Part shown: piece by piece, positions 3,831-58,495 of the stretch
How positions within the stretch are numbered: position 1 is the stretch's first letter
Layout: each line of letters opens with the position of its first letter
DNA from: Clostridia bacterium
GTDB lineage: Bacteria; Bacillota; Clostridia; UMGS1840
DNA: 64,000 bases
Assembly: GCA_017468465.1 (NCBI GenBank)
Contig: JAFUIN010000001.1
Coordinates: forward strand, 14,425-78,424
Reading direction: 5' to 3'
Translations under genes and position numbers: made by a program
Notes under the pieces: model-generated
Seen by the model: only the letters and a program-made list of their open reading frames with translations
The model's database searches: none
What the model was told of the DNA's origin: nothing

Positions 3831-3906
3831 GCTGGTGTAGCTCAGTCGGTAGAGCATCTCACTCGTAATGAGAAGGTCACGTGTTCAAGTCACGCCACCA
3901 GCTCCA
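3831..3906 (+). tRNA. tRNA-Thr (anticodon CGU), CCA encoded
   Basis: Hand-folded cloverleaf: 7-bp acceptor GCTGGTG/CACCAGC, D arm GCTC/GAGC, anticodon stem TCTCA/TGAGA with loop CTCGTAA, and T loop TTCAAGT. There is one A49-C65 mismatch and the discriminator is U. Confidence 0.93.
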
Positions 3907-3912
3907 AAAAAA

Positions 3913-3941
3913 ACGACAAGTTCGACTTGTCGTTTTTTTTT
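3913..3941 (+). terminator. Intrinsic terminator after tRNA-Thr
   Basis: ACGACAAGT-TCG-ACTTGTCGT hairpin followed by a 9-T run. Confidence 0.8.
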
Positions 3942-4077
3942 ATGAAACAAATTTTTCAGGATTTTTGAAATATACTTTGTGTGTAATTTGTTGCAATTTG
4001 AAATATATCGTGCTATAATGTTATAAGTTAATGAAAATTTATGATCTGTTACGGAAATAAACGAAGAGGAGTTCTAT

Positions 4078-5685: not shown

Positions 5686-5827
5686 ATCCTTTCTATAAGT
5701 CTATTTTAGCATAGCGGCTTTATATTTTCAAGATATTACGAAAAAAATCAGAAAGATATAGAAGCAGCCGAGGGAACAAGATTGTTGTTTGTTTTATCTA
5801 ATGTATTGATTTTTAAGGAGATAAACT

Positions 5828-6760
5828 ATGAAGTATTCAGACAGTTTTGGAAAGAAAAGCTCCCAAATACTTTTGGGGACTGCATATTTTGGAGACACCA
5901 TTTCCGAGGCAGAGGCATTTGCCATTATGGATAAATATTACGAGATGGGTGGCCGCCATATTGACGTTGCCCGTCTTTATGCAGATGGAGAAGCAGAAAA
6001 AGTAGTCGGAAAGTGGCTGAATGACAGAAAGCCTGCCGACATCCTTGTTTCCACCAAAGGCGGATATTATGATATGGATGGAGGAGAGGCACCCCGAATC
6101 AACGAAGCGGATATCCGTTTTGATTTGGAATGCAGTTTGAAGGCGTTAAAACAGGAGCAAATCGAATTTTACTGGCTTCACCGTGATGATGAAGCAAGAC
6201 CGGAAAATGAAATCATTGATATGATGAATCGGCTGGTCAAGGAAGGGAAAATTAAACAATTCGGTGCATCAAACTGGCGTTCACAAAGAATCGAAATGGC
6301 AAATCAATATGCAAAAGAAAATGGACTTGCCGGATTTTCAGCAAGTCAGATACGCTTTAATCCTGCCTATTGTCTGGGTGAAAGAGGCGGACTGGTAGGA
6401 ATGGATGCGGATGAGTTTGCATTCTATAAAAACAATCCTATGCCGGTGGTGGCATATTCTTCCCAGGCAAAAGGATTTTTCTCAAAGATGGCAGAACAGG
6501 GCGAAAGTGCGCTGTCCGAGAAAGCAAAAAAGCGGTACCTGTGTGAAGAAAATTTGAGACGGTTAGAGTTGATTAAACAGCTTTCGGCAGAACAGCGCTG
6601 CAGTGTTGCAGCTGTGGTATGCGGCATTCTTTGTTCTATCTCGGCTGTGGAGGTATTTCCGATTATCGGCGGAAGAACCCTTTCCCAGATTGAAGATTCT
6701 ATGAGAGGCGCGGATGTTTCAATTCCGGCAAATGTGATAACCGACGTGTTGGGTTATTAA
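5828..6760 (+). CDS. Aldo/keto reductase family oxidoreductase
   Basis: GTAYFG...GGRHIDVARLYADGEAE..VG, EFYWLHRDD and GKIKQFGASNW are typical AKR motifs. RBS AAGGAG lies upstream. Confidence 0.85.
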   Translation: MKYSDSFGKKSSQILLGTAYFGDTISEAEAFAIMDKYYEMGGRHIDVARLYADGEAEKVVGKWLNDRKPADILVSTKGGYYDMDGGEAPRINEADIRFDLECSLKALKQEQIEFYWLHRDDEARPENEIIDMMNRLVKEGKIKQFGASNWRSQRIEMANQYAKENGLAGFSASQIRFNPAYCLGERGGLVGMDADEFAFYKNNPMPVVAYSSQAKGFFSKMAEQGESALSEKAKKRYLCEENLRRLELIKQLSAEQRCSVAAVVCGILCSISAVEVFPIIGGRTLSQIEDSMRGADVSIPANVITDVLGY

Positions 6761-6779
6761 ACGCAAAAGAACAAGTATA

Positions 6780-7985
6780 ATGGAGAATGGGAAAATGAAT
6801 CTCTTGGATCAGTGTAAAAAATATGGAAAATTGATACTAAAATGGGTGCTTTTCGGCATCTTAATTGGCTTTCTTGGCGGACTATTGGGCACTGCTTTTC
6901 ATATCAGTGTGGATTTTGTTACCGAACAGCGGGAACATAACCATTGGATGATTTATCTGTTGCCTATTGGCGGGCTTCTTATTGCAGCGATGTATGGTCG
7001 CTTTCGTAACTTTGGCAATATTGACACAAAGCGTGTCTTTCAGGCGGTGAAAGAGAAAAAAGATGTTCCGCTTGTGATGATTCCACTGATTTTTTTTGGT
7101 ACGGTCATTACGCATGCATTGGGTGGTTCTGCCGGCAGAGAAGGGGCTGCACTCCAGCTTGGCGGCAGTATGGGCTACAATGTAGGACAAGCATTGAAGC
7201 AGGAGGATGACAGCAAAAAGCTGATGGTGGCAGCGGGGATGAGCAGTGTGTTTTCTGCTTTGTTTGGAACACCGCTTACTGCAACAGTTTTTTCCCTTGA
7301 GGCAACCAGAGTAGGAATGTTCAATTTTCGTGGCTTGCTTCCGGGGCTGATTTCTTCTGTGACAGCGTTTTTAGTATCCCGTTTTTGTGGGGTGGAACCG
7401 GTTCGTTTTCTGATGCCTTTCGTATCGGGGAATCTGATGTTTTCCATATTAAAGGTAATTGTGCTTGGGATTTTATGTGCAGGAGTTTCTATGGTGTTTG
7501 CATGGTCTCTTCACAAGAGTGAACATCTTGCGAAAAAGACTGCTCCGAATGCTTATGTTCGTGCTTTTGCCGGCGGGGTTCTGCTTGTGGGACTTACTTA
7601 TCTTGCCAAAACACACGACTATAACGGTGCGGGGATGGGTGTAATTGCAAATGCAATCGCCGGAGAAGCAAATTTTGAGGCGTTTCTTATGAAGATTCTG
7701 TTTACTGCAGTTACCGTTGCGGCTGGATTTAAGGGTGGCGAGATTGTGCCTACCTTTTTCATTGGAGCAACCTTTGGTTGCATGGCAAGCGGTCTGTTGG
7801 GGTTAGACCCCGGGTTTGGAGCCTGCCTTGGATTTATTGCTTTATTTTCCGGCATGACAAAATGTCCGTTTGCTTCCGTATTGTTAGGCTTGGAAGTGTT
7901 TGGGGTGAAGGGAATTCTCTTTTTTGCCATCATTGTTCCTGTCACTTACCTTTTTTCCGGACGTCTGGGACTATATAATGAATAA
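6780..7985 (+). CDS. ClC family anion channel/antiporter (short form, possibly CLC-F-like)
   Basis: GSAGREGAALQLG (gating-Glu motif without the Pro of GREGP), GTPLTA and GGEIVPTFFIGA; about 10-12 TM segments over 401 aa. Confidence 0.85.
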   Translation: MENGKMNLLDQCKKYGKLILKWVLFGILIGFLGGLLGTAFHISVDFVTEQREHNHWMIYLLPIGGLLIAAMYGRFRNFGNIDTKRVFQAVKEKKDVPLVMIPLIFFGTVITHALGGSAGREGAALQLGGSMGYNVGQALKQEDDSKKLMVAAGMSSVFSALFGTPLTATVFSLEATRVGMFNFRGLLPGLISSVTAFLVSRFCGVEPVRFLMPFVSGNLMFSILKVIVLGILCAGVSMVFAWSLHKSEHLAKKTAPNAYVRAFAGGVLLVGLTYLAKTHDYNGAGMGVIANAIAGEANFEAFLMKILFTAVTVAAGFKGGEIVPTFFIGATFGCMASGLLGLDPGFGACLGFIALFSGMTKCPFASVLLGLEVFGVKGILFFAIIVPVTYLFSGRLGLYNE

Positions 7986-7989
7986 AAAA

Positions 7990-8016
7990 ATCCCGTATGG
8001 AAACTCCATACGGGAT
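7990..8016. terminator. Bidirectional terminator between the ClC gene and rpsT
   Basis: ATCCCGTATGGA-AAC-TCCATACGGGAT perfect hairpin flanked by an A-run and T-rich sequence. Confidence 0.7.
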
Positions 8017-8034
8017 TCTTGGGACTTATGAGAA

Positions 8035-8304
8035 TTAACCTTTGATTGCCGCGTTGTATTTTTTCGCAACGTTAGATTTTTTTCTGGAAGCGGTGTTTTT
8101 CTTCAGAACGCCTTTGGTGCAAGCCATATCAATGGTTTTCACGGTGTTCTGGAAGATTTCTGCCAAGCCTGCTTTGTCTTCTTTGTCGCAAGCTGCTTCA
8201 AAAGTTTTTAAGGTAGTTTTTAAGTTAGATTTAATCATCTGGTTCTGCAGAGTTTTGGTTGCAATAACTTTTACTCTTTTTTCAGCGGATTTAATATTCG
8301 GCAT
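8035..8304 (-). CDS. rpsT: 30S ribosomal protein S20
   Basis: MPNIKSAEKRVKVIATKTLQNQMIKSNLKT... is a canonical S20 N-terminus; 89 aa. Confidence 0.95.
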   Translation of the reverse strand: MPNIKSAEKRVKVIATKTLQNQMIKSNLKTTLKTFEAACDKEDKAGLAEIFQNTVKTIDMACTKGVLKKNTASRKKSNVAKKYNAAIKG

Positions 8305-9920: not shown

Positions 9921-10937
9921 TTGTGCAAAAATTCAATTAAAAAATTTTATATTTCATTAGTAGTATTTCTGTTTTCTGTGGGTTTTATCCGCTTGCATTT
10001 TATGAATGAAATTCCGGTGAACAGCCAAAGCGAAGTCCGATACCTGATTCCTTCCGGAAAAGCAGTTGGGATGAAGCTGAAAACCAAAGGCGTGATGGTG
10101 GTAGGAGTAGAACAAAACGGGCACCTTCCGGCAAAAAAAGCAGGTATAAAAGTAGGGGATATCATCCAAAAAGTAAACGAAACCACCCTGCAAAATACCC
10201 GCCATTTTGAAGAAATTTTAGAAACCACAAAAGAGGAAACGCTGCTATTGACTGTGCTTCGTAAAGAAAAGGAGTGCACCCTGAAACTGACGCCCACCTT
10301 GAACCAAAGTAATCAGTATGTTTGCGGATTCTGGCTCCGTGACAGTGCTGCCGGAATTGGAACCGTTACGTTTTTTACAGAGGATAAATCCTCCTTTGTG
10401 GCACTGGGGCATCCGGTCAACGATATGGATACCGACCTCTCCTATTCCGTAAGGCTTGGCTATCTGGAGCTTGTGGATATCAAAGGCGCAAAGCAAGCAC
10501 AAAAGGGACGCCCCGGTGAGTTGATTGGTGTTTTATCGGGGGAAGCAGTCGGCAGAATTTGTGAAAACACGGCATCGGGCATCCGGGGAAACGTGAAAAA
10601 TCAAACCATTGTTACAGAAAAAAAGATGCCTATTGCCAAGAAAAACGAAGTCAAAAACGGAAAAGCAACCATTTTATCAACAGTTTCGGAGGAAGGCACC
10701 AAAGAATATGAAATTGAGATACTTCGCATTTTAGACAATGGAGACTATAAGGATTTTGTGATTGAGGTAACAGACAGTGAGCTTCTTTCCAAAACAGGAG
10801 GCATCGTTCAGGGAATGTCGGGTTCACCGATAATTCAGAATGGCCGAATTGTGGGAGCTGTAACACACGTTTTTGTAAACGATTCCAAAAAAGGCTATGG
10901 CATATTTATTGAGAATATGTTAGCGGACAATGAGTAA
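9921..10937 (+). CDS. spoIVB: Stage IV sporulation protein B (S55 serine peptidase with PDZ domain)
   Basis: N-terminal TM, PDZ-like KAGIKVGDIIQKVN, and a C-terminal GGIVQGMSGSPIIQNGRIVGAVTHVFVNDSKKGYG catalytic region. Confidence 0.85.
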   Translation: MCKNSIKKFYISLVVFLFSVGFIRLHFMNEIPVNSQSEVRYLIPSGKAVGMKLKTKGVMVVGVEQNGHLPAKKAGIKVGDIIQKVNETTLQNTRHFEEILETTKEETLLLTVLRKEKECTLKLTPTLNQSNQYVCGFWLRDSAAGIGTVTFFTEDKSSFVALGHPVNDMDTDLSYSVRLGYLELVDIKGAKQAQKGRPGELIGVLSGEAVGRICENTASGIRGNVKNQTIVTEKKMPIAKKNEVKNGKATILSTVSEEGTKEYEIEILRILDNGDYKDFVIEVTDSELLSKTGGIVQGMSGSPIIQNGRIVGAVTHVFVNDSKKGYGIFIENMLADNE

Positions 10938-10975
10938 AAATTACCCGTCACGATTGCTGACGGGTAATTTTATTT
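10938..10975 (+). terminator. Intrinsic terminator after spoIVB
   Basis: AAATTACCCGTCA-CGATTGC-TGACGGGTAATTT hairpin plus T-rich tail. Confidence 0.8.
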
Positions 10976-11100
10976 GGTAATGTGTTTTTTCGCATTCTAA
11001 AATTTGCTGAAATTAAAAAAAACCATTCCAACTATTCGGAATAACTTGAAATTTTCTAACCGATATGCTATAATAAATCAAGCAAGAAGAAGGCAGGCTG

Positions 11101-11634
11101 ATGAAATTTACATTTGAAAATACATACAATCAAAAAGCATTATCTGTTATGGCAAAGTGTATTAGAAAGACTGTCAGAAAAGCAAAAAGCAACCAAAGCC
11201 ATATTTTTGGTTGGATTGTTGCCGTGTTAGGGATTCTTCTGTCACTTTCTTCCGGTGAGGAAAGGTTTATCATTGATGGAAGAAAAATCATCACCTGGCT
11301 TGTGGTTCTTGTGCTTGTTGCTGCACTGTTTTTGGAAGACAAAATCAATGGATATTTTGCAAAAAAACGGCTGCTTCCCGGTACGGAAAAAGCTGTGGTA
11401 ACCTTCGATTGTGAAAATTCGGACAGCTTTCTTTCAGAAACAGCTGTCGGCAAAACGGAATTTTCGTATGATAAGATAGGGCTGGTGGCAGAAACAGACG
11501 CATACTTTGTGTTTATATTCAGCAGCAGTCATGCACAAATTTATGATAAAAACAATCTTTCCGGCAGCACTTGTGAGGAATTCAGGCAATTTATCACCGA
11601 ACGAACAAACAAGAGCATTATCGCAGTCATATAA
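11101..11634 (+). CDS. Hypothetical membrane protein (YcxB-like architecture)
   Basis: 177 aa with two central TM helices followed by a small soluble domain. The family assignment comes from architecture only. Confidence 0.55.
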   Translation: MKFTFENTYNQKALSVMAKCIRKTVRKAKSNQSHIFGWIVAVLGILLSLSSGEERFIIDGRKIITWLVVLVLVAALFLEDKINGYFAKKRLLPGTEKAVVTFDCENSDSFLSETAVGKTEFSYDKIGLVAETDAYFVFIFSSSHAQIYDKNNLSGSTCEEFRQFITERTNKSIIAVI

Positions 11635-12898: not shown

Positions 12899-13921
12899 AT
12901 GAAAAAATTTCTGTTACCGGAAAGTGGTCAGTTTTACAAGGCGAATCTGCATTGTCACACCAATGTGTCAGATGGCAGACTTTCCCCTGCTGAAATGAAG
13001 GAAGAATACAAAAAAAGAGGCTATAGCGTGATTGCTTATACCGATCATAATGTGCTGGTTCCTCATCCGGAGCTGACCGATGATGGTTTTGTTGCACTTC
13101 ACGGCTTGGAATATGATATCACGGAAGAAGCAAAGCAAGATGAGCCGTTTCACCGGTTAAAAACCTGCCATATTTGTATGATCACTACCGATCCGGATTA
13201 TGTGGTGCAGCCCTGTTTTTGGTATTCCTGGCTCTATCAGCATTTGCCGGACCCATCTGTGGTTCAGCATGATGAGTCTATTCCGCCGTACGAATTTCAA
13301 TATACTCCCGAGTATATCAACGATATGATTAAAACCGCCCGTGAAAAAGGCTATTTTGTAACCTATAATCATCCGGCATGGTCTCAGGAAGGCTATGAAA
13401 TTTACAGCAAGTACGAAGGGATGAACGCCATGGAAATCTGCAACTACGGTTGTATTACCGAGGGATATCACGATTATAATCCCCATGTGTACGATGAGTT
13501 GCTCCGCCAGGGTAAAAAGCTGTACTGTATTGCAACTGATGATAACCACAACGGTCGCCCCCTGGATAGTCCACATTGCGATTCCTTTGGCGGTTTTACG
13601 ATGATTAAGGCAGAAAAGCTGGAATACAGAGCCATCGCTGATGCACTGAAAAACGGTAACTTCTATGCTTCACAGGGGCCTGAAATTCACAGCTTATATG
13701 TGGAAGACAACAAATTACATATTAAAACCTCTGATGCGGCAAAAATTGTCTTCACCACCGGTGTCCGCCACGGAAAGTGTCAGTATCCGTCGGAAGGGGA
13801 TACCATAAACGAAGCAGAGTTTGAGCTTCGCCCTGATGACATTTATGTTCGTGTGACCGTGTTTGACAAGAGCGGCAAGCCTGCTGATACCAACGCATAT
13901 TTTGTGGAAGATATTTTATAA
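12899..13921 (+). CDS. PHP-family metal-dependent phosphoesterase/hydrolase, paralog 1
   Basis: N-terminal ANLHCHTNVSDG (HxH) and AYTDHN, later TYNHP and ATDDNHN. RBS GAAGGAG lies upstream. 340 aa. Confidence 0.8.
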   Translation: MKKFLLPESGQFYKANLHCHTNVSDGRLSPAEMKEEYKKRGYSVIAYTDHNVLVPHPELTDDGFVALHGLEYDITEEAKQDEPFHRLKTCHICMITTDPDYVVQPCFWYSWLYQHLPDPSVVQHDESIPPYEFQYTPEYINDMIKTAREKGYFVTYNHPAWSQEGYEIYSKYEGMNAMEICNYGCITEGYHDYNPHVYDELLRQGKKLYCIATDDNHNGRPLDSPHCDSFGGFTMIKAEKLEYRAIADALKNGNFYASQGPEIHSLYVEDNKLHIKTSDAAKIVFTTGVRHGKCQYPSEGDTINEAEFELRPDDIYVRVTVFDKSGKPADTNAYFVEDIL

Positions 13922-13934
13922 AGGAGACCTCGCT

Positions 13935-14972
13935 ATGAGAACTTACTTATTGCCCGAAAAAGGACAGTTTTATAAAGCAAATTTACATTGTCATACCACC
14001 GTTTCCGACGGAAATCTGACGCCGGATGAAATCAAGGAGGCATACAAACAGCGCGGATATTCTGTTGTGGCATTTACCGACCATAATATTTTAGTGCCGC
14101 ATCCGTATCTGCAAAGCGACGATTTTGTGGCGTTGTATGGTATGGAATACTATTTTGCAGAGGTGCTTCCCGGTCAGTCATGGGAACAATCCAGAACCTC
14201 TCATTTGTGTCTGATTTCATTGGATCCTGAAAATGTGATTCAGCCTTGCTTTTATCAACCGAATTGGTTTTATGACAGACTTTTAGAACGTAACGACCCC
14301 CGCTATCAGGTGACATTGGATCCTAATGCGCCTGCTTACGAAAGAGTGTTCACACCCGACGGTGTGAATGAGGTGATTCAAACCGCCCGTGAAAAAGGTT
14401 TTTTTGTTACTTACAATCATCCCAAATGGTCCAAGGAGGGTTATGAAACCTACAGCCAATACAAGGGAATGCACGCCATTGAAATTTGCAACTACGCCTC
14501 CTATGTGAAGGGCTTCCACGAATATAACACCAAGGTGTATGAAGAAAAACTGCATAACGGTGAAAAAATCTTTGGTATTTCTGCCGACGATAACCATAAC
14601 GGTTCTCCCTTTGACAGCCCGTATAACGATTCCTTTGGTGCTTTTACCATGATCAAAGCAGAAAATTTGGATTACCGTTCCATTACCGATGCTTTGGTGA
14701 AAGGTCATTTTTACGCATCTATGGGGCCGGAAATTTACAGCATGTATCTGGAAGGCAACAAGTTGCACGTGAAAACCTCCGATGCAGCCATCATCAACTT
14801 TACCTCCGGCATCCGTCATTGCTATAATGAGTATTGTCCGGAAGGCGGCAAGCTCAACGAAGTTATTTTTGATGTATGGCCACAGGATATTTTCTTCAGA
14901 GTAACCGTGTGCGACAAAGAGGGCAGACGTGCAACCAGTAATGCCTACTTTGTGGAAGATTATGTGAAATAA
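13935..14972 (+). CDS. PHP-family metal-dependent phosphoesterase/hydrolase, paralog 2
   Basis: ATG 13935 is preceded by AAGGAGA, and the N-terminus MRTYLLPEKGQFYKANLHCHT aligns with paralogs 1 and 3. The track start at 13863 overlaps paralog 1 and is rejected. Confidence 0.8.
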   Translation: MRTYLLPEKGQFYKANLHCHTTVSDGNLTPDEIKEAYKQRGYSVVAFTDHNILVPHPYLQSDDFVALYGMEYYFAEVLPGQSWEQSRTSHLCLISLDPENVIQPCFYQPNWFYDRLLERNDPRYQVTLDPNAPAYERVFTPDGVNEVIQTAREKGFFVTYNHPKWSKEGYETYSQYKGMHAIEICNYASYVKGFHEYNTKVYEEKLHNGEKIFGISADDNHNGSPFDSPYNDSFGAFTMIKAENLDYRSITDALVKGHFYASMGPEIYSMYLEGNKLHVKTSDAAIINFTSGIRHCYNEYCPEGGKLNEVIFDVWPQDIFFRVTVCDKEGRRATSNAYFVEDYVK

Positions 14973-14988
14973 ACGGGAGGATTTTGAT

Positions 14989-16041
14989 ATGAGAAAATAT
15001 TTATTGCCCGAAAACGGACAGTTTTATAAAGCAAACTTACATAGCCATTCTACCATGTCTGACGGAAAGTTGTCTCCCGAAGAGATGAAGGCGGAATATC
15101 AGAAGCGCGGCTATAGCGTGATTGCTTATACCGACCATAACGTAATGGTTCCGCATCCGGAATTAACCGATGAAAACTTCGTTGCTCTCACCGGAACCGA
15201 ATACGATTTTGATAACGAAACCGAAGAAAATCCCTATCACGTGATTCCGGTTTGTCACATCTGCCTGATTGCATTGGACCCCGATAACGTGGTGCAGCCC
15301 TGTTTCAGCCTTCCCAATCGGTATTACGACAGAATCGTGTCATTCAACGACCCCCGATATACTGTTACTTACGATAAAACCCAGCCAAATTATTCCCGTG
15401 ATTATACGCCGGAATGTATCAACAACATTATGAAAACCGCCCGTGAAAAAGGCTTTTTCGTAACCTATAACCATCCCACCTGGTCGCTGGAACGGTTTGA
15501 AATTTACGGCAAGTACGAAGGGATGAATGCCATGGAAATCTGCAACTATGGTTGCGTTACCGAGGGCTATGACGAATATAATGCCGCTCAGTATGACGAA
15601 ATGCTTTCTGCCGGCAAAAAAATCTTTTGTATTGCAACCGATGATAATCACAACCACTATTCCTTTGACAGCCCTCGTTGCGATTCCTTTGGCGGCTTTA
15701 CTATGATTAAAGCGAAAAAGCTGGAATACCGTTCCATTACCGATGCACTGGTAAAAGGTCATTTCTATGCCTCTATGGGCCCCGAAATTTACAGCTTATA
15801 TCTGGAAGGCAACAAGCTTCACATCAAAACCTCCGATGCAAAGCGTATTGTGTTTGCCACCGGTATCCGCCATTGCCATACTGCATATCCCACCAACGGC
15901 GATCACATCAACGAAGCGGAATTTGAGCTTCGTCCTGATGATATTTATGTTCGTGTGACCGTGTTTGGGATGGACGGAAAACCTGCCGATACCAACGCTT
16001 ATTTCTTAGAAGACATCTTAGGCGAATCAGATAAAATGTAA
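14989..16041 (+). CDS. PHP-family metal-dependent phosphoesterase/hydrolase, paralog 3
   Basis: MRKYLLPENGQFYKANLHSHSTMSDG; RBS GGGAGGA upstream. The protein is a mosaic of paralog-1-like and paralog-2-like segments. Confidence 0.8.
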   Translation: MRKYLLPENGQFYKANLHSHSTMSDGKLSPEEMKAEYQKRGYSVIAYTDHNVMVPHPELTDENFVALTGTEYDFDNETEENPYHVIPVCHICLIALDPDNVVQPCFSLPNRYYDRIVSFNDPRYTVTYDKTQPNYSRDYTPECINNIMKTAREKGFFVTYNHPTWSLERFEIYGKYEGMNAMEICNYGCVTEGYDEYNAAQYDEMLSAGKKIFCIATDDNHNHYSFDSPRCDSFGGFTMIKAKKLEYRSITDALVKGHFYASMGPEIYSLYLEGNKLHIKTSDAKRIVFATGIRHCHTAYPTNGDHINEAEFELRPDDIYVRVTVFGMDGKPADTNAYFLEDILGESDKM

Positions 16042-49305: not shown

Positions 49306-51195
49306 ATGAAGAAGTTTTTGAAGAATATCGGTTTTTATGTGCTGTTATTTGCCATTTTTATGACAGTGCTTTCCATTTTGACCGTAGGAGATCAGCCGGA
49401 GATTGTGAAATATTCCGATTTTGTGGTGCAGTTTAAGGCAGGCGAAATCAAATCCATCACATACTATCAGGGCGAAAACCGTGTGGAAGCGGTGCACAAT
49501 TCCAAAGGAATGGAAAAAAATATTGAAGTTGTGATTCCCAGTCTGGACACCATGAATCAGGATTTGGGTGTGGATATTTCCAAATATATGGCAGAGGGGA
49601 AAGACACTCTGACCTATTCGGTTGTTCCGCCTCAGACAGCACCCTGGTGGTTTGCCATTATTTCACCCCTTGGGCTCATTATCATTGCTGTTTTGTTCTG
49701 GGTGTTCTTTATGCGTCAGGCAGGTGGTGGCGGCGGTGCAATGGCTTTTGGGAAAAGCAAAGCACGTATGACCGACCCCTCCAAAGCAACTGTTACCTTT
49801 GATGATGTAGCAGGTGCAGATGAAGAAAAAGAAGAACTGAAAGAAGTGGTGGATTTCTTAAAAAATCCCCAGAAATATCATGCCATCGGTGCAAGAATTC
49901 CCAAAGGACTTTTGCTGGTTGGCCCTCCGGGAACCGGTAAAACACTGCTTGCAAAGGCTTGTGCCGGCGAGGCAGGTGTTCCCTTCTTTTCCATCAGTGG
50001 TTCTGACTTTGTGGAAATGTTTGTCGGTGTGGGTGCATCCCGTGTAAGAGATTTGTTTGAAAATGCAAAAAAAGCATCCCCTTGTATCATTTTTATCGAC
50101 GAAATTGATGCTGTTGGCCGTCACAGAGGCGCAGGCTTAGGTGGCGGACACGATGAAAGAGAGCAGACTTTGAATCAGCTGTTGGTGGAAATGGATGGTT
50201 TTACCGAAAATCAGAACATCATTATTGTAGCTGCAACCAACCGCCCCGATATTTTAGATCCGGCACTGCTTCGTCCCGGTCGATTTGACCGTCAGCTTGT
50301 GGTGAATTATCCCGATGTAAAGGGCAGAGAAGAAATTCTCAAGGTTCACTCCCGTAAAAAACCGTTGGCTTCCGATGTGGATTTATCTGTTATTGCAAAA
50401 ACCACTGCCGGCTTTACCGGAGCCGATCTCGAAAATCTGTTAAACGAAAGTGCACTTCTTGCAGCTCGTGAAAATAGAACCCAGATCAATATGCAGGATG
50501 TTTCCGAGGCGATGATTAAGGTTATCGCAGGGCCGGAAAAGAAATCCAAAAAGGCGAGCGAAAAGGAAAAGAGCTTAACGGCATATCATGAAGCAGGTCA
50601 TGCTATTGTGACAAAGCTTCTGCCCAATCAGGACCCTGTGCATCAGATTTCCATTATTCCCAGAGGCAGAGCAGGCGGTTATACCTTGTCTCTCCCCAGT
50701 GAAGATAAAATGTATGCTTCCAAAGTGGGTATGATGGAAGAAATTGTGGTTCTTTTAGGTGGTCGTGTGGCAGAAAAACTGGTGCTTGACGATATTTCTA
50801 CCGGTGCTTCCAACGATATTCAGCGTGCAACCAAAATTGCCCGTGAAATGATTACCAAATATGGTATGAGTGAAAAATTAGGTCCCATTTGCTTCGGCAG
50901 TGAGCAGGATGAGGTGTTTATCGGAAAAGATTTTGGTCAGACCAGAAACTATTCCGAACAGGTTGCCTCTCAAATTGATGAAGAAATCAAAGCAGTGATT
51001 GACAGTTGTTATGAGAAATGTCAGGCACTATTGTCAGACAATATGGAGCTGCTGCATGAGCTTGCAAAACTGCTTTTGGAAAAAGAAAAGGTGGAAGGCG
51101 ACGAATTTTTGGCACTCTATAATAAGGTGAATGGCATCGTGGAAAATCCTTCCAACGAAGAAACAACCCAAGAGGCACAAGATGGCAACGAATAA
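49306..51195 (+). CDS. ftsH: ATP-dependent zinc metalloprotease FtsH
   Basis: Two TM helices, Walker [15 protein letters not shown], the SRH motif, and zinc site HEAGHA. Confidence 0.95.
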
Positions 51196-51799
51196 AAAAC
51201 CAAAATTCTATGCAGTAAAAGTGGGAGCTGCTCCCGGTATTTATGAAAGCTGGGCAGAATGCGAGCCCTTAATTAAGGGCTTTGCCGGCGCAGAATACAA
51301 AAGCTTTTCCACCCGTGAAGAAGCAGAGTATTATCTTACGGGAAAGGCTCTTGCTGTGGAGCAGTTGCCTAGTGAAGATACTCTTTTTGCCTATGTAGAC
51401 GGAAGCTATAACATAGAAACCGGTGTTTACGGATACGGTGTTGTTTTGATTTTTTCCGACGGACATATCGAGGAGATGTCCGGCGGAGATAAAAAAGAAG
51501 AAGTAGCTTCTATGCGAAATGTGGCAGGAGAGCTGAAAGGTGCTATGCTTGCCATGCAGTATGCCGTGAACCACGGATTTCGGAAAGTGAAAATTTTTCA
51601 CGATTACGAAGGCATTGCAAAATGGGCAAAGGGTGAGTGGAAAACCAATCTGGATGCTACTGCTTCCTACAGAGAATTTGCCTGGATGATTGGTGCAAAA
51701 ATTGAGCTTTCTTTTGAAAAGGTAGATGCTCACACCGGTGTATTTTATAATGAGCGGGCAGATGTCTTAGCGAAACAGGGCGCCGGAATTACGGAATAA
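51182..51799 (+). CDS. rnhA: Ribonuclease H1 with N-terminal hybrid-binding domain
   Basis: [45 protein letters not shown] is an HBD. It is followed by an RNase H core with acidic residues in YVDGSY, GELKG, HDYEG and [11 protein letters not shown] 51182 overlaps the ftsH stop. Confidence 0.8.
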
Positions 51800-51807
51800 A
51801 TTATCAC

Positions 51808-51865
51808 AAAAAATGACATTATTTGCATTGCAAGTATTGTCATTTTTGTTTTTTTGTGATAGAAT
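51808..51865 (+). repeat. Terminator-promoter cassette, copy A
   Basis: A 14-bp-arm hairpin (51813-51843) plus a T-run. The -35-like TTGTCA lies in the 3' arm (51837-51842), followed by 17 nt and an extended -10 TGATAGAAT (51857-51865). 52/58 identical, ungapped, to 57064-57121. Confidence 0.8.
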
Positions 51866-51890
51866 AGATTTAACGAAAGTTAAATCTATT
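51863..51890. promoter_or_regulatory. Perfect 12-bp inverted repeat overlapping the -10/TSS (candidate operator)
   Basis: AATAGATTTAAC-GAAA-GTTAAATCTATT, with all 12 pairs complementary. This segment is absent from cassette copy B. Confidence 0.6.
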
Positions 51891-51892
51891 TG

Positions 51893-51971
51893 GCTAAATT
51901 CGCGTTCCGCGAGCTAAATTGAGCAAGCTCAGCTAAATTGCCTACGGCAGCTAAATGTGCTTCGCACGCTA
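51893..51971 (+). repeat. Tandem array of four GCTAAAT + short hairpin modules (unclassified leader element)
   Basis: GCTAAAT occurs at 51893, 51913, 51932 and 51950, with GCTA at 51968. The spacers are distinct palindromes: TCGCG-TTC-CGCGA, TGAGC-AA-GCTCA, TGCC-TAC-GGCA and GTGC-TTC-GCAC. Confidence 0.75.
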
Positions 51972-52025
51972 CAGTATGAAACTCAGATAAAAATAAATTT
52001 TTTCGATTATAGGGAGAAGAATGAA

Positions 52026-52370
52026 ATGTATAAAAAAATAGAGCAGTTAAAAACAGTAACCAAAAAAACTAACGAAGGCAAAGATAAAATGTTCAAGACC
52101 AACCTTGCAGACTTTGACGGTTGGAATCCGAAAGCCAGACTGTTTTCTTTGGTGCAGGTACCGCCGGGGGAAGAAGTAGACTTTCATATGCACGTTGGTG
52201 AGAGTGAAACATTCTTTATTCTTTCCGGCAAGGGCATCTATACTGATAACGGAACTCAGGTTGAGGTGGCACCCGGAATGGTAACCTTCACACCCTCAGG
52301 GGAAGGCCATTCCATTAAAAATACGGGCGATGATATGCTTTCCTTTATCGCTTTGATTGTAGTTGATTAA
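52026..52370 (+). CDS. Cupin domain protein (small, single domain)
   Basis: Metal-site motifs FHMHVGESETFFILSG and PSGEGHSIKN. ATG 52026 lies 9 nt after AGGGAG. The track start (GTG 51957) lies inside the hairpin array and is rejected. Confidence 0.8.
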   Translation: MYKKIEQLKTVTKKTNEGKDKMFKTNLADFDGWNPKARLFSLVQVPPGEEVDFHMHVGESETFFILSGKGIYTDNGTQVEVAPGMVTFTPSGEGHSIKNTGDDMLSFIALIVVD

Positions 52371-52479
52371 ATGCCGACGTTTTGATTGGTGATACCCGGC
52401 TTGTCAAAAAAAGTAATCATGCTTAAAAATGTGGCAATGCCACAGTTCAAAAAAATATATAGATATGGAGGAATTCAAG

Positions 52480-53388
52480 ATGAATTCACAACAAGCAGTT
52501 CGTGCAGCGGTAGACGCTCACACTATTATTCCTGCGTTCAACATTCCCTATTTGCCGATGGTTGAACCGGTTGTTCAGGCGATTGTAGATGAGGATTCTT
52601 TGGCGATGGTTCAGGTTGCCCGTCTGGAATGGGAAAAATTTGAATCACAAAGTCCCGAAGCAGTTGCAAAAGAATATTTCAAGTTTGCAAAAGAAGGTTA
52701 CACCCTTCTTCATCTGGACCATGTTCCCGCCATTGACGAGGATATGAAAAAAGTAGATTATATGGATATTATCAAACGGGCATTGGATGTGGGCTATCAG
52801 TCTGTAATGGTTGACGGTTCCAGACTTCCCCTGGACGAAAACATTGCAACTACAGCAGAAGTTGCAGCACTGGCAAAAACCTTTGGAGCTGCAGTGGAAG
52901 CAGAATTGGGAGCAGTATCCGGTCACGAAGGAAGTGGCATCGGCTTAAGCTATGAAGAACTGTTTACCACCAAAAAAGGTTTCACAGTTCCGGAAGAAGC
53001 AAAACGGTTTGCAAAGGAATCCGGCTGTGACTGGTTGTCTGTTGCTGCCGGAAGTTTCCATGGCGCCATCGCGTCCAGCACCAAGCATCTGAAAAAGCCC
53101 AATGCAAGACTGGACATTGAACATATTAAAACATTGTCTGAAATTACCGGCAAAATGCCCTTGGTACTTCACGGCGGAAGCGGCATTGAGCAAGACTACA
53201 TCTTAAAAGCAATGGCAAACGGTATCGCAAAAATCAACGTAGGAACTGAAATCCGCCAGCCCTATGAATTTGCACTGGAAGAAAAACCGGGTGATATTGC
53301 CTATGCACAGCAGAAGGTGTATGACCGTACCCGTTGGGTAATTCATGAATTTTTGCGCACCACCGGTAACCACAGCAAATTAAAATAA
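52480..53388 (+). CDS. Class II ketose-bisphosphate aldolase family protein
   Basis: IIPAFNIPY, LHLDHV, VEAELG and LVLHGGSG motifs. ATG 52480 follows GGAGGAA. Confidence 0.8.
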   Translation: MNSQQAVRAAVDAHTIIPAFNIPYLPMVEPVVQAIVDEDSLAMVQVARLEWEKFESQSPEAVAKEYFKFAKEGYTLLHLDHVPAIDEDMKKVDYMDIIKRALDVGYQSVMVDGSRLPLDENIATTAEVAALAKTFGAAVEAELGAVSGHEGSGIGLSYEELFTTKKGFTVPEEAKRFAKESGCDWLSVAAGSFHGAIASSTKHLKKPNARLDIEHIKTLSEITGKMPLVLHGGSGIEQDYILKAMANGIAKINVGTEIRQPYEFALEEKPGDIAYAQQKVYDRTRWVIHEFLRTTGNHSKLK

Positions 53389-53428
53389 AATTGTAAGCAC
53401 ACCTCACGGTACAGTGTAAGGAGCCATT

Positions 53429-54394
53429 ATGAAAACAGTTTTTATTTTGAATCCCAAGGCAGGTAAGGGACGGCAAAAAGAAAAAACAGAAGAAATTCTG
53501 CTCAAAATAATTGCCGAAAAGGAGCTGGATGCACAAGTTTACGTCACCGCCTATCCGGGCGATGCCACAAGGTTTGTGAGAGAGCATTGTAAGACTTATG
53601 GAGCGGCCCGGTTTATTGCTTGTGGCGGAGATGGAACCTTAAGCGAAGTGCTAAACGGCGCTGTTGGGTTTTCGGGGGCAGAGGTTGGTGTGATGCCGCT
53701 GGGAAGCGGAAACGATTTTTGCAGAAATTTCCCGTGTGATACTGCATTTGGCGATGTATATTTGCAGGCAGTATCGGAAGCTGTTGCTTGTGACGCCATT
53801 CGGTATACTACCACGGTGAACGGAGAAGCTGTTACGGGGTATTGTGCAAATATGTTTAATATTGGCTTTGACTGTAAGGTGGCAGATACCACCAATCATC
53901 TGAAAGATAAAACTGTATTTGGTGGTTCTTTTGCATACTTTTTGTCCATTCTTATGAATCTGATTCAAAAGAAGGTGACGTTTCTTACGGTAACAGCAGA
54001 CGGGCTTTGTGAGCATAGCGGAGCAACGCTTTTAACCTCTGTTGCCAACGGAAAATACTGTGGCGGCGGGATTATGAGCAATCCGATGGCATCCTTACGT
54101 GATGGGAGAATCAATTTCAATATCATCAGAAACATTTCCCGTTTGCGGTTTGTTTCGTTGCTCTTTTCTTATATGAAAGGGACGCATATGTCCAAAAAAG
54201 GAATTGAGAAGTACATATTGTCCAAGCATTGCAAAACCTTGACGGTAACGCCGGAGAACGGCATTATGAGGCTTTGTATTGATGGAGAAATTGTGACTGC
54301 CGGTGAAACCACCTTTGAAATTGTGCCCAATGCGATTCAGTTTGTGTTGCCCGGGGTGAAAAACCAAAGCACGTTAATCGGAGTATGCAGATAA
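53429..54394 (+). CDS. Diacylglycerol kinase-family lipid kinase (YegS/DagK-like)
   Basis: FIACGGDGTLSEVLNG and MPLGSGNDFCRNF motifs. Confidence 0.85.
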   Translation: MKTVFILNPKAGKGRQKEKTEEILLKIIAEKELDAQVYVTAYPGDATRFVREHCKTYGAARFIACGGDGTLSEVLNGAVGFSGAEVGVMPLGSGNDFCRNFPCDTAFGDVYLQAVSEAVACDAIRYTTTVNGEAVTGYCANMFNIGFDCKVADTTNHLKDKTVFGGSFAYFLSILMNLIQKKVTFLTVTADGLCEHSGATLLTSVANGKYCGGGIMSNPMASLRDGRINFNIIRNISRLRFVSLLFSYMKGTHMSKKGIEKYILSKHCKTLTVTPENGIMRLCIDGEIVTAGETTFEIVPNAIQFVLPGVKNQSTLIGVCR

Positions 54395-54410: not shown

Positions 54411-54439
54411 TTGACAATCGTTTACAGATATGGTATACT
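54411..54439 (+). promoter_or_regulatory. Sigma-A promoter of the T-box-controlled gene
   Basis: TTGACA (54411-54416), 17 nt, TATACT (54434-54439). Confidence 0.7.
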
Positions 54440-54445
54440 ATGCTC

Positions 54446-54737
54446 TAATGAAAGGCTGTGACGAAGAGGGCAGATTCAGGCGAACCTTTGAGAGAAGTGG
54501 CGGTTGGTGCGAGCCATAGGGGACAGAGTTTGTTTGTAGCTTCTGAGCCGGGAGGAAGAAAGTTTTCAAAAGAAATGAGTAGAACCTCTCCGTGATTGCT
54601 GCGTTAAGGCATAAGAGGTTGTTAGACCTTAAGAGTGGCGATAGAATTATCGCAATTTGAGTGGTACCGCGGGTGAATAATTGCTAAAACACTCGTCTCA
54701 AAGAATTTTACCGATGCTTTGAGGCGAGATTTTTTTT
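54446..54737 (+). promoter_or_regulatory. T-box riboswitch leader (tRNA-sensing transcription attenuator)
   Basis: Stem I has a K-turn (GGC-UGU-GA.../...GA-GCC, 54454-54549), an AGAGA bulge (54491-54495) and distal loop GGUUGGUGCGA. Stem II has AGUAGAA. The T-box sequence AAUUUGAGUGGUACCGCGGGUG lies at 54654-54675. The terminator is CTCGTCTCAAAG/CTTTGAGGCGAG plus U8 (54692-54737). Confidence 0.85.
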
Positions 54738-54763: not shown

Positions 54764-57055
54764 ATGGAAAACTCAATGGACATCAGCTTAAAAATTAAGG
54801 AGATGGCATGGCGTATTCGCGAGCTTCGGGAAATTGAAGGCTTTACCCCCGAAGATATGGCGGAAAAGACAGGTGTATCGTTGGAAGACTATCGGAAAAT
54901 GGAAAATGGAGAAGCAGACCTGAACTTTGCTTTTATTTACCGTTGTGCAGAAGTGTTCCGGGTAAACGTTACCGATATTATCGAAGGTACCAGCCCCAAT
55001 CTTCGCTCTTACACAGTGACTCGTGCAGGAGCTGGTCAGCAGATTGCAAAGGCTCATGGCATGGTATATTACAATATGGCACATGCTTTCCGTAACAGAA
55101 TCGCAGAGCCCTTGTATGTTGTAAGCACCTATGATGAAGCAGCACAAAATAAAGACATTGAACTGACCACTCACGAAGGTCAGGAATGTGATATTGTGAT
55201 TGAAGGCAATCTGATGGTGCAAATCGGGGAACATAAAGAAGTGCTTGGCCCCGGCGACAGCATTTACTATAACAGTAGCACTCCCCACGGTATGATTGCT
55301 GTAAATGGAAAAGACTGTAAATTCTACGCGTTTGTGCTTCGTGCCGATGCCGAAGTTGCTGAAAAAGTGGCAGAAGTGGTTCCTACAGAGCAGATTATCG
55401 GCTCCATTCATCGGGATACCAAAGACAGAATTTATCATAAATTTATCGACGTGGTGGAAGACGAACAGGGAACACCTACCTCTATCACCTTCAAAAATAC
55501 AGAAAAGTTCAATTTTGCATTCGATTTGGTGGATGAGCTGTCCAGAAAAGAGCCGGACAAGCTTTGTATGCTCCACATTTCCAAAAACAAAACCGAACGT
55601 CGCTTCACCTTTACCGATATGCGTAAAAAATCCAGCCAGTGTGCTAACTATTTTGCATCCTTGGGGATTAAAAAGGGCGACCGCGTTATGCTCATTTTAA
55701 GACGTCACTATCAGTTCTGGATTGCTATGCTGGGGCTGAATAAGCTGGGTGCTGTTGCCATTCCGGCGGTTGACCAGCTGCACGAGCATGATTTGGAATA
55801 TCGTTTCCAGTCTGCAGGGGTTAGTGCAATTGTTTGTACTGCAGAAGGCGAAGTTTCAAACTATGTTGATATGGCGGCGAAAAATTGCCCCACATTGCAG
55901 CATAAAATGCTGGTTGGCGGCAAAAAAGAGGGCTGGAGAAGCTTTAACGAAGAATATAAACGCTTCAGCACACATTTTGAACGTACCGAAGATTCTCCCT
56001 GCGGTGATGATACCATGCTGATGTATTTCACCTCCGGAACCTCCGGCTATCCGAAAATTGCTACCCATAACTATAAATATCCTTTGGGTCATTTTCATAC
56101 TGCTAAATATTGGCACAATGTAGACCCTGACGGATTGCACTTTACCATTTCCGATACCGGTTGGGCAAAGGCAATGTGGGGCAAATTATACGGTCAGTGG
56201 CTGTGCGAAGCGGCAACCTTTGTATACGATTTTGACCGATTTGATGCAGCAGAAATTCTGCCCATGTTCCAGAAGCATCACATTACCACCTTCTGTGCAC
56301 CGCCTACTATGTTGCGCATGATGATAAAACAGGACATTTCCAAATACGACTTTTCTTCTGTTCGTCATATGACTACCGCTGGAGAAGCACTGAATCCGGA
56401 AGTGTACCGTCAATTTGAAAAAGCAACTGGCTTACAGATTAAAGAAGGTTTCGGTCAGACCGAAAGCACCATGATTATCGGGAACCTGGTTGGTAAGCCT
56501 CATAAAATCGGTGCAATGGGAAAACCGGCACCGATTTACAAGGTAGAGCTTCATAATGCAGACGGTGAACAGGTAAAAACCAGTGAATCCGGCGAAATTG
56601 TTATCAATGTTAAAGACGGCGCACCTTGCGGTCTCTTTACCGGATATTACGGTGACGAAGAAAAAACCAAAGAGGTATGGCACGATGGCTATTATCACAC
56701 CGGTGACGTTGCCTGGTGCGATGAAGACGGATATTATTGGTATGTTGGCCGTGTGGACAATGTTATTAAATCTTCCGGATACAGAATCGGACCCTTTGAA
56801 ATTGAAAGCGTTATTATGGAGCTTCCATATGTTTTGGAATGCGGTGTTTCTGCTGTTCCCGATGAAGTAAGAGGGCAGATTGTAAAAGCCAGCATCGTAT
56901 TGGTTAACGGCACGGAAGGCACAGATGAGCTGAAAAAAGAAATCCAGAATTATGTTAAGGAAAAAACAGCTCCCTATAAGTACCCCAGAATTGTTGAATT
57001 CAAGGAATCGTTGCCCAAAACCGTAAGCGGAAAAATTCAGAGAAACAAATTGTAA
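54764..57055 (+). CDS. Fusion protein: XRE-type HTH + cupin + AMP-forming acyl-CoA synthetase (medium/short-chain ACS-like)
   Basis: N-terminal HTH (IRELREIEGFTPEDMAEKTGVSLEDYRKMENG), cupin (GDSIYYNSSTPHGM), then adenylation motifs YFTSGTSGYPK, EGFGQTES, YYHTGD, GRVDNVIKSSGYRIGPFEIE and PKTVSGKIQR. ATG 54764 lies 9 nt after AAAGGAGGA. Confidence 0.85.
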   Translation: MENSMDISLKIKEMAWRIRELREIEGFTPEDMAEKTGVSLEDYRKMENGEADLNFAFIYRCAEVFRVNVTDIIEGTSPNLRSYTVTRAGAGQQIAKAHGMVYYNMAHAFRNRIAEPLYVVSTYDEAAQNKDIELTTHEGQECDIVIEGNLMVQIGEHKEVLGPGDSIYYNSSTPHGMIAVNGKDCKFYAFVLRADAEVAEKVAEVVPTEQIIGSIHRDTKDRIYHKFIDVVEDEQGTPTSITFKNTEKFNFAFDLVDELSRKEPDKLCMLHISKNKTERRFTFTDMRKKSSQCANYFASLGIKKGDRVMLILRRHYQFWIAMLGLNKLGAVAIPAVDQLHEHDLEYRFQSAGVSAIVCTAEGEVSNYVDMAAKNCPTLQHKMLVGGKKEGWRSFNEEYKRFSTHFERTEDSPCGDDTMLMYFTSGTSGYPKIATHNYKYPLGHFHTAKYWHNVDPDGLHFTISDTGWAKAMWGKLYGQWLCEAATFVYDFDRFDAAEILPMFQKHHITTFCAPPTMLRMMIKQDISKYDFSSVRHMTTAGEALNPEVYRQFEKATGLQIKEGFGQTESTMIIGNLVGKPHKIGAMGKPAPIYKVELHNADGEQVKTSESGEIVINVKDGAPCGLFTGYYGDEEKTKEVWHDGYYHTGDVAWCDEDGYYWYVGRVDNVIKSSGYRIGPFEIESVIMELPYVLECGVSAVPDEVRGQIVKASIVLVNGTEGTDELKKEIQNYVKEKTAPYKYPRIVEFKESLPKTVSGKIQRNKL

Positions 57056-57063
57056 AAAATATA

Positions 57064-57121
57064 AAAAAATGACAATATTTGCTTTGCAAGTATTGTCATT
57101 TTTAATTTTATGTGATATAAT
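57064..57121 (+). repeat. Terminator-promoter cassette, copy B
   Basis: Hairpin ATGACAATATTTGC-TTT-GCAAGTATTGTCAT (57069-57099) plus a T-run. TTGTCA (57093-57098), 17 nt, then TGATATAAT (57113-57121). It terminates the ACS gene and promotes the MFS gene. Confidence 0.8.
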
Positions 57122-57172
57122 GTATTTGGTAATTTTTACAGCCAAAATATCTAACAGCAAAGGAAGAAAAAA

Positions 57173-58495
57173 ATGAACACACAAACGACAAAAAGTTGGC
57201 GCACAAACAAATGGATGAGAGCAGCAATTCCGGCGCTTTTACTGCATTGCAGTATCGGAACCGTTTACTGCTGGTCCATTTTCAGCCAGGAAATTGCAGA
57301 TTATATCGGCTTTTCAAAGGGTGCTACCGAGTGGGCATTCAGCCTTGCGATTTTCTTTTTGGGGATGTCGGCAGCCTTTTTGGGAAATATTGTAGAAAAA
57401 GATATCCATAAATCGTCTTTGATTGCTACCATCTGCTTTGCAATCGGCATGGCGGGAACCGGTGGATTTATCTACTATGGCGGTCTTCATCAGGGAAGTG
57501 TGGTTTCTTTAATCGGCATTTATCTTTGCTATGGCGTCATTATGGGCATCGGCTTGGGAACCGGCTATCTTTCTCCCGTCAAAACGCTGATGATCTGGTT
57601 TAGCGACAAAAAAGGTCTTGCAACCGGCCTTGCAGTTGCAGGCTTTGGTGCAGCAAAAGCGATTGCCAGCCCCATTATGCAGTCAATGCTTTCTTCCATG
57701 GGGGAAAGCGGAATCTACAAAATGTTTTTGATTTTGGCTTGTGTATATTTTGTCATGATGTTTATCGGGCATCTTTTGCTGAAAAAGCCGGACGATTGGC
57801 ATGAGCCTACGGGAGCAGAAAAGAAAGACAGCATCATGACCGTCTTAAAATCCAGACCGATTAGCAACTATGTTGGGATCTGGCTGATGTTCTACATCAA
57901 CATTACATGCGGGCTGGCCCTTTTGTCGCAAGAAAAAATGATTGTAAAATGTATCGGCTTAGCAAGCTTTGTAGGGGTTATTTCTACGGTGTCTGCAATC
58001 TTTAATGCTGTGGGACGTCTTGGCTTTTCTGCTTGGGGCGACAAGATGAAAGACAGAAACACCATCTATAAAATTATTTTTGCTTTCTCTATTTTGTTTA
58101 CTGCCATTGTCATTGTAACAAATGGTATTGCAAACGGCGCAAACAGCGGCTTTTTAGCAGCGTTAGTGCTGATTCTCATTATGTTTGTCAATGCAGGCTA
58201 TGGCGGCGGATTTTCCAATGTTCCCACCTTGCTGTCTGACCATTACGGCATGGGAAGCATCAGCGCAATTCACGGAATCACCCTTTCTGCATGGGCATTT
58301 GCAGGGCTTAGCGGAAATCAGCTTGCTACCTGGATTGTAAATAATTTTGGAAATCCCGTTACACAAAATGGAGTTACGGTGAATCCCCAGGGATACCAGA
58401 TGGTGCTTTATGTTACCATTGCACTTTACATCGTTGCAATGCTTCTGAGTATGTTTTTGGTAAAAAGCAAAGCAGAAGTAAAGCAGAAGGCTTAA
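57173..58495 (+). CDS. MFS transporter (oxalate/formate antiporter-like, OFA family)
   Basis: About 12 TM segments over 440 aa, with N-terminus RWMRAAIPALLLHCSIGTVYCWSIF typical of OFA-type MFS carboxylate transporters (from memory). Confidence 0.75.
   Translation: MNTQTTKSWRTNKWMRAAIPALLLHCSIGTVYCWSIFSQEIADYIGFSKGATEWAFSLAIFFLGMSAAFLGNIVEKDIHKSSLIATICFAIGMAGTGGFIYYGGLHQGSVVSLIGIYLCYGVIMGIGLGTGYLSPVKTLMIWFSDKKGLATGLAVAGFGAAKAIASPIMQSMLSSMGESGIYKMFLILACVYFVMMFIGHLLLKKPDDWHEPTGAEKKDSIMTVLKSRPISNYVGIWLMFYINITCGLALLSQEKMIVKCIGLASFVGVISTVSAIFNAVGRLGFSAWGDKMKDRNTIYKIIFAFSILFTAIVIVTNGIANGANSGFLAALVLILIMFVNAGYGGGFSNVPTLLSDHYGMGSISAIHGITLSAWAFAGLSGNQLATWIVNNFGNPVTQNGVTVNPQGYQMVLYVTIALYIVAMLLSMFLVKSKAEVKQKA

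Follow-up and report, generated by a model that had tools for sequence, protein, structure and literature searches.

A 58-nt cassette at operon junctions 3' of rnhA in uncultured Clostridia probably combines an intrinsic terminator with an overlapping promoter

Two gene junctions about 5 kb apart in the genome of an uncultured Clostridia bacterium of ruminant gut metagenomes carry near-identical copies of a 58-nt cassette, copy A at 51808-51865 and copy B at 57064-57121 of the 64,000-nt stretch of DNA analyzed here (hereafter the window). The cassette is probably an overlapping intrinsic terminator and sigma-A promoter that has been duplicated locally, with both termination and initiation at this site being predictions. 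It is a compact version of a known terminator-promoter arrangement and not a new kind of element, and as far as it has been sampled it constitutes a small family of one clade and one locus, not a repeat dispersed throughout the genome.

The two copies, AAAAAATGACATTATTTGCATTGCAAGTATTGTCATTTTTGTTTTTTTGTGATAGAAT (A) and AAAAAATGACAATATTTGCTTTGCAAGTATTGTCATTTTTAATTTTATGTGATATAAT (B), align without gaps, and on recounting they differ at 6 positions, which leaves intact the 52 of 58 identities given in an earlier note on this DNA. A repeat search widened the match to 75 nt (family D7; 51797-51871 versus 57053-57127, with 62/75 positions or 83% identical); in both copies it begins at the TAA that closes the upstream gene and ends shortly past the -10 element. 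The 29-nt palindrome at the core of the cassette occurs exactly twice in the 64 kb, where 100 dinucleotide-preserving shuffles gave an expectation of 0.00. A covariance model run with its filters off found copies A (80.9 bits) and B (84.9 bits) as the sole strong matches in the window, and no further copy in its remaining approximately 57 kb. Because the flanking genes are unrelated by Pfam and the similarity ends at the cassette edges, the two copies are not part of a larger duplication, and the suggestion that their likeness did not come from gene duplication holds.

All genes of the cassette region are on the + strand. Copy A is preceded by tilS, hprT, ftsH, and rnhA, the last gene of this run (51182-51799), which encodes a 205-aa RNase H1 with Pfam Cauli_VI and RNase_H domains; 14 nt lie between the rnhA stop codon and the copy A hairpin. 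A leader of 160 nt separates copy A from a cupin gene (52026-52370), the first gene of an operon (52026-54394) that continues with a class-II aldolase (about 52480-53388) and a DAGK/YegS-like kinase (53429-54394). The next gene encodes a 763-aa fusion of HTH_3, cupin, and AMP-binding domains (54764-57055), and 14 nt separate its stop codon from the copy B hairpin. Beyond copy B is an MFS transporter gene (57173-58495, identified by Pfam), which starts 51 nt after the copy B -10 and is followed by a melibiase and further genes. The assignments of rnhA, the cupin operon, and the fusion gene rest on Pfam together with gene calls of the identical contig L001, which belongs to a set (L001-L006) with an identical MFS protein, common neighbouring genes, and the same cassette copies.

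The fusion gene has its own predicted promoter (54411-54439, TTGACA-17-TATACT) and a T-box leader (54449-54703). The leader scored 85.7 bits against RF00230 (E = 3e-18), slightly below the gathering score of 93, and together with its promoter it spans 54411-54703. Clostridia commonly have the architecture of this fusion protein (more than 120 cluster representatives at an identity of at least 80%), and the placement of a tRNA-sensing leader before an acyl- or aminoacyl-adenylate-forming enzyme fused to a DNA-binding domain is an unusual pairing. Elsewhere in the window, positions 12899-16020 hold three tandem copies of a unit of about 1.05 kb (spacing 1048 and 1054 nt, 60-80% identical, families D1-D6), which are presumably three tandem paralogous genes.

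Outside the repeated cassette, the leader 3' of copy A includes an unrelated ladder-like element in truncated form, with only its 5' half present (51867-51975, + strand). This remnant consists of one 5' hairpin followed by four units of GCTAAAT and a short GC-rich hairpin, each hairpin having a different sequence. A full ladder is present in L022 (10693-10900), with four GCTAAAT-hairpin units, the centre GCTAAAAGCGAATTTAATTTAGC, and then units of a hairpin and ATTTAGC; across the full versions the centre reads GCTAAAAG(C/T)GAATTTAATTTAGC and is followed by 2-4 hairpin-ATTTAGC units. The full ladder is predicted to fold into stacked 7-bp GCUAAAU/AUUUAGC helices with side hairpins (z = -4.3, versus -0.66 for the half in the window). 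The same architecture is found in two IMG/VR contigs (L082, about 10176-10312, and L103, about 148-328, both on the - strand), where the ladders adjoin tRNA genes, after a terminator and before a promoter. Their hairpin sequences differ, and 8 pairs have compensatory changes among 3 sequences. The ladder corresponded to no Rfam family and no GenBank phage sequence, and the literature on the heptamer and its complement yielded nothing relevant. Candidate identities for the ladder are a structured RNA, an element of single-stranded DNA, and an array bound by protein.

The cassette itself is composed of an A-run, a hairpin with 13-bp arms, a T-run, and the promoter-like string TTGTCA-17 nt-TG-n-TAnAAT, with the -35 hexamer inside the 3' arm. 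Both window copies read A-run, TGACA(A/T)TATTTGC, a 3-nt loop, GCAAGTATTGTCA, TTTTT, a T-rich spacer, and TGTGATA(G/T)AAT. In copy A these elements are the A-run (51808-51813), 5' arm (51814-51826), loop (51827-51829), 3' arm (51830-51842, with TTGTCA at 51837-51842), T-run (51843-51847) leading into the T-rich spacer, TG extension (51857-51858), and -10 TAGAAT (51860-51865). The corresponding positions in copy B are 57064-57069 for the A-run, 57070-57082 for the 5' arm, 57083-57085 for the loop, 57086-57098 for the 3' arm (TTGTCA at 57093-57098), 57099-57103 for the T-run, 57113-57114 for the TG extension, and 57116-57121 for the -10 TATAAT. Terminator and promoter elements share bases: the 3' arm ends with the 6 nt of the -35 hexamer, and the U-tract doubles as the promoter spacer.

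Repeat, promoter, and folding analyses support this delineation, and the sequence, the promoter scan, and the folding agree with the anatomy proposed in the earlier note, namely a terminator-like hairpin with a -35 in its 3' arm, a 17-nt spacer, and an extended -10. Folded with their flanks, copies A and B reach -22.7 and -21.5 kcal/mol (z = -5.2 and -5.8 versus shuffles), and copy B was the top-ranked terminator-like site, with 18 pairs, in a scan of the 47-62 kb region. The promoter scan recovered TTGTCA-17-TAGAAT (51837-51865) and TTGTCA-17-TATAAT (57093-57121), both with the TG extension, whose hexamers match the consensus at 10/12 positions in copy A and 11/12 in copy B. Among promoter-like sites of the same 47-62 kb, the promoter 10 nt before the T-box leader, which served as the internal positive control, ranked first, copy B second, and copy A third.

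Related loci were fetched via homologues of the fusion protein and of RNase H1 and scanned with a mismatch-tolerant search and with the covariance model, which was built from 11 copies. These scans gave 15 cassette instances in 9 related uncultured Clostridia genomes. All 15 are co-oriented with their flanking genes and each follows a same-strand stop codon, the distance from stop codon to hairpin being 4-37 nt in the 13 instances measured; two hairpins in L143 begin a few bases past the stops. One copy is linked to rnhA and is present in all 9 genomes of the clade. It follows the rnhA stop wherever RNase H1 is at least 71% identical to that of the window (the window, L143, L007, L013, L020, L021, L022, and L025, with L023 and L024 carrying the same copy as L022), and relatives with RNase H1 58-61% identical have rnhA abutting the next gene without a cassette. 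The gene that comes after the rnhA cassette varies between a cupin, DUF559, a recombinase island, GNAT, NAT_N/GNAT_C, and a 110-aa ORF.

Extra copies, one or two per locus, are found at other operon junctions of the variable locus 3' of rnhA. They follow the fusion gene in the window, L143, L007, and L020, AlaDH in L007, and both a DAGK-like kinase and EamA in L022, which gives the junction types rnhA/x, fusion/x, AlaDH/MFS, DAGK/EamA, and EamA/x. The L007 copy after AlaDH precedes an orthologue of the window's MFS transporter (85% identical protein), so this gene has the fusion gene as its upstream neighbour in the window versus AlaDH in L007.

The housekeeping genes upstream of rnhA were covered over roughly 10 kb in each of seven genomes (about 70 kb in all) and had no copy, and neither had the surroundings of fusion genes in more distant species. 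A strict pattern, TGACANTANTTGC-N(2-6)-GCAANTANTGTCA, was used for scans of larger collections. In 185,579 species-representative genomes it retrieved one real copy, the rnhA copy of MAG RGIG7452 (L013), and two chance matches; this MAG, with its one strict copy, is the only whole MAG that the genome scan covered. Since the pattern misses the short and 28-nt variants (L020a, L020b, L022b, and L022c), these scans give a lower bound. Four matches in JGI metagenome contigs had loops of 4-6 nt and were judged to be chance from loop length alone, and the pattern with a fixed 3-nt loop matched nothing in viral contigs. BLASTN of the 75-mer against phage and plasmid collections returned chance-level matches only (E at least 0.04), Rfam gave nothing at copies A and B at gathering or E-value thresholds, and literature on the arm sequences produced unrelated primer or eukaryotic matches only. 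The idea of a small intergenic family is supported by the instances at several junction types, but the description of the module as dispersed does not fit what was sampled, as every copy lies within the variable locus just 3' of rnhA and the strict pattern has a single genuine occurrence in the genome collection.

In comparisons of the window with L020, L021, L022, and L025, third-codon identity of ftsH and rnhA is 46-61%, the cassette is 74-90% identical (82-92% for the hairpin and T-run), and the 34 nt after the -10 are only 26-65% identical. This contrast points to purifying selection on the cassette with sharp borders. Within these borders the outer arms, TGACAATATT and (A/G)TATTGTCA, are almost invariant, as are the A-run and the T-run. 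The loop is variable, with eight different triplets among the 29-nt hairpins, and the inner stem is variable too; in L021 and L025, A has been replaced by G in the right arm in such a way that sense-strand pairing persists as G·U. Most copies retain a T facing a G in the stem. The hairpin is 26 nt long in L020b and L022c, which have a shorter stem with 10-bp arms and a 6-nt loop, 28 nt in L020a, and 29 nt elsewhere. L022b has two compensatory double changes, one of which turns TTGTCA into the consensus TTGACA with the 5' arm changed to match; this is the single -35 change observed. Pair counting gave 96.5% paired cells and 2 pairs with double changes, a level reached by 27/500 shuffles, and the support from covariation is modest and comes largely from one diverged copy.

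The stem is AT-rich, with 4 G-C pairs of 13, and the 13-bp stem is lengthened by 5 A-U pairs. The hairpin from A-run to T-run has a folding energy of -13 to -20 kcal/mol, or -9 to -15 kcal/mol without the A/T runs, and in 11 of 12 copies it is more stable on the sense than on the antisense strand. TTTTT lies directly 3' of the stem in 14/15 copies (TTTT in L025), and a T-rich tail of 11-12 nt is likewise found in 14/15. The string TTG(T/A)CA-17 nt-TG-n-TAnnnT is also kept in 14 of the 15 copies, the exception being L025, where a 6-nt spacer deletion removed the promoter spacing and the hairpin and T-run were kept. The three L007 copies share a private TTTTTTATTT variant in the spacer, suggesting gene conversion or recent copying.

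That the hairpin is transcribed is indicated by its location past stop codons, by the U-tract, by wobble pairing on the sense strand, and by the compensatory changes; a sigma-A promoter is indicated by the TG-extended -10 at a constant spacing of 17 nt. In the mechanism that we propose, the A-run, the 13-bp stem, and the T-run would form a Rho-independent terminator in the RNA of the upstream gene, a few bases past its stop codon. At the DNA level, the TTGTCA that ends the 3' arm would act as a -35 box, and this box and the TG-n-TAnAAT 17 nt downstream of it would together constitute an extended -10 promoter of sigma-A type, from which the following gene or operon would be transcribed. The module is probably ancestral at the 3' end of rnhA in this clade of uncultured gut and rumen Clostridia, from where it would have been copied to one or two more operon junctions in the gene-variable locus 3' of rnhA.

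Such an arrangement would place the outer stem under a double constraint, in which the outer 3' arm must stay a -35 box and the 5' arm must stay complementary to it, and strong sequence conservation of the outer stem would result. The loop and the inner stem could drift freely provided that sense-strand pairing holds. The double constraint accounts for the invariance of TATTGTCA and its complement, and less well for that of the A-run, which is superfluous to one-way termination. The weaker matches of the covariance model are ordinary A-run/stem/T-run hairpins after a tRNA, AlaDH, melibiase, and the fusion gene of a distant relative. Their presence in equivalent slots, as in the AlaDH slot that holds an ordinary terminator in L001 and a cassette in L007, shows that cassettes occupy terminator positions.

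Alternatively, the palindrome could be the operator of a dimeric DNA-binding regulator that overlaps the -35, with the downstream units forming one regulon and the HTH_3-cupin fusion as a candidate regulator, a reading that we consider unlikely. It would fit the near-invariance of the arm sequences, which goes beyond pairing across genomes whose synonymous sites are near saturation, and it would fit the free loop, since many operators have a free central spacer. Overlap with the -35 is the classical position of a repressor, and in the window, L007, L020, and L143 the gene immediately before one cassette encodes HTH_3 and cupin domains. However, the distance between the outer half-sites varies (hairpins of 26, 28, or 29 nt), whereas a rigid dimer would require it to be constant on duplex DNA; this variation argues against a dimeric operator. 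Substitutions in the arms keep wobble pairs or are compensated on the sense strand, the A-run, the T-run, and the site just past stop codons would have no role in an operator, and the palindrome matches no published motif. The fusion gene itself has its own promoter and T-box, as described above, and L022 has three cassettes with no fusion gene in the locus.

The fusion protein is an unlikely binder of the palindrome, with HTH_3-cupin fusions present without palindrome sites in L008-L012. At these five loci the fusions are 80-87% identical and stand in four distinct contexts, and no palindrome was found within 10 kb of them within 8/26 mismatches or at a meaningful covariance model score. The earlier note had offered co-regulated promoters sharing an operator within the hairpin as one explanation, which is now disfavoured by the variable arm spacing and by the wobble and compensatory changes of the inner stem. 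A common core promoter alone does not show co-regulation of the cupin operon and the MFS gene.

A reading of the cassette as a short element that moves or recombines, whether as a repeat of MITE/REP type or as a recombination site that marks and shifts operon-sized gene modules after rnhA, appears quite improbable. This reading draws on the gene order around the cassettes, which differs between genomes with the cassettes staying at block borders: rnhA is followed by five different gene sets, and the MFS orthologues stand behind different genes in the window and L007. The variant private to the three L007 copies also speaks for it, and the conserved imperfection of the palindrome, the T opposite G, recalls REP or IS200/IS605-type hairpins. 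Against this, the copy number is low and confined to a single locus, neither a target-site duplication nor any terminal repeat other than the hairpin is visible at the cassette edges, and the flanking sequences do not align. The cassettes have no associated transposase or RAYT, the only nearby recombinases being those of an inserted island in L007, and viral, phage, and plasmid collections gave no real match to the cassette. The variable spacer is unfit for the core site of a tyrosine recombinase, the central region being 6, 8, or 9 nt when the outer 10 bp are taken as arms, and gene gains have also occurred inside blocks without a cassette, as with an LRR gene in L021.

The L007 island (1132-8154) lies between the rnhA cassette and a DAGK-like gene, where the window has the cupin and aldolase genes. 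It contains a recombinase fragment, KilA-N, a large serine recombinase, an AAA_21 ATPase, and an HD protein, and the cassette promoter faces it. The nearest relative is L143, whose RNase H1 is 94% identical. There an ORF for a DUF559 protein (Vsr-like endonuclease; 10740-11260) takes the place of the ladder remnant between the rnhA cassette and the cupin gene, and GC-rich inverted repeats (CCTCCCTTGCCTAAAGGGAGGGGG ... CCCCTTTAGGCAAGGGGG) flank this ORF. We also considered the directly repeated 58-nt module, which would insulate and re-promote whatever comes after it, as a docking and recombination substrate for swapping operon-sized blocks after rnhA, a reading that we regard as unlikely; if it were true, the locus would be a home-grown, recombinase-independent gene-cassette system in which the junction supplies both terminator and promoter.

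Very unlikely is a terminator-only cassette with an incidental AT-rich TATAAT and downstream genes read from elsewhere or by read-through, for which the hairpin and T-run kept in L025 despite the lost 17-nt spacing, the commonness of TATAAT-like hexamers in so AT-rich a region (GC 0.15-0.29), and the 42 promoter-like sites versus 29 expected in 15 kb can be cited, but the -10 with its TG lies exactly 17 nt from TTG(T/A)CA in 14/15 copies and is followed by unconserved bases, the window copies, at 10-11/12 with the TG extension, are the best in the region after the T-box promoter, and the sole compensatory change inside the -35 (L022b) moves toward the consensus TTGACA.

An overlapping terminator and promoter has precedent, with interoperon pairs of this kind documented in ribosomal and translation operons of Salmonella (PMC6735719). 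As in Salmonella, an upstream terminator and a downstream promoter overlap physically within a short intergenic space, and the arrangement is evolutionarily conserved (PMC6735719). Unlike the Salmonella pairs, which lie between ancient housekeeping operons (PMC6735719), the cassette described here has 2-3 near-identical paralogous copies per locus and borders a gene-variable region, and its function is predicted. Because the downstream partner changes between species, the cassette does not lock gene order.

With its A-run, stem-loop, and T-run just past a stop codon, the cassette also resembles the A-tract/U-tract ("bidirectional-type") terminators of low-GC Firmicutes. Terminators of the same form occur in these genomes at 3906-3952 of the window, at L001 18824, and at L020 20240. 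Unlike ordinary terminators, whose stems are unrelated to one another, the cassettes share 26/26 arm bases and a fixed downstream -10. The terminator at 3906-3952 directly follows a tRNA gene (3831-3903), has a different stem (AAAAAAAACGACAAGT-TCG-ACTTGTCGTTTTTTTTT), and at 34.5 bits is the best covariance model match outside the family. Several unrelated terminators in these genomes have the stem start G(A/G)CAA(T/G) in common.

Short palindromic intergenic repeats such as REP/BIME, the pneumococcal BOX, RUP, and SPRITE elements, Neisseria Correia elements, and MITEs can act as sites of transcription termination or initiation and often lie just past stop codons. REP/BIME, BOX, and Correia-type families have tens to hundreds of copies genome-wide, and MITEs are marked by inverted repeats at their ends together with target duplications, or by a transposase associated with them. 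The cassette, at 58 nt and with 1-3 copies in one locus, has none of those hallmarks, and its likeness to REP, BOX, and Correia-type repeats is superficial.

By itself the cassette opens no new biological question; the rearranging gene blocks around it and the ladder element beside copy A are more intriguing. The cassette could help to mark operon boundaries when uncultured Clostridia are annotated, and it could be employed as an insulating junction in hosts of low GC content. If confirmed, it would be a clean, natural, and minimal 58-nt terminator-plus-promoter part whose two functions share bases, and it would show how such base sharing freezes a sequence, to the point that the sole tolerated -35 change is one that is compensated and directed toward the consensus.
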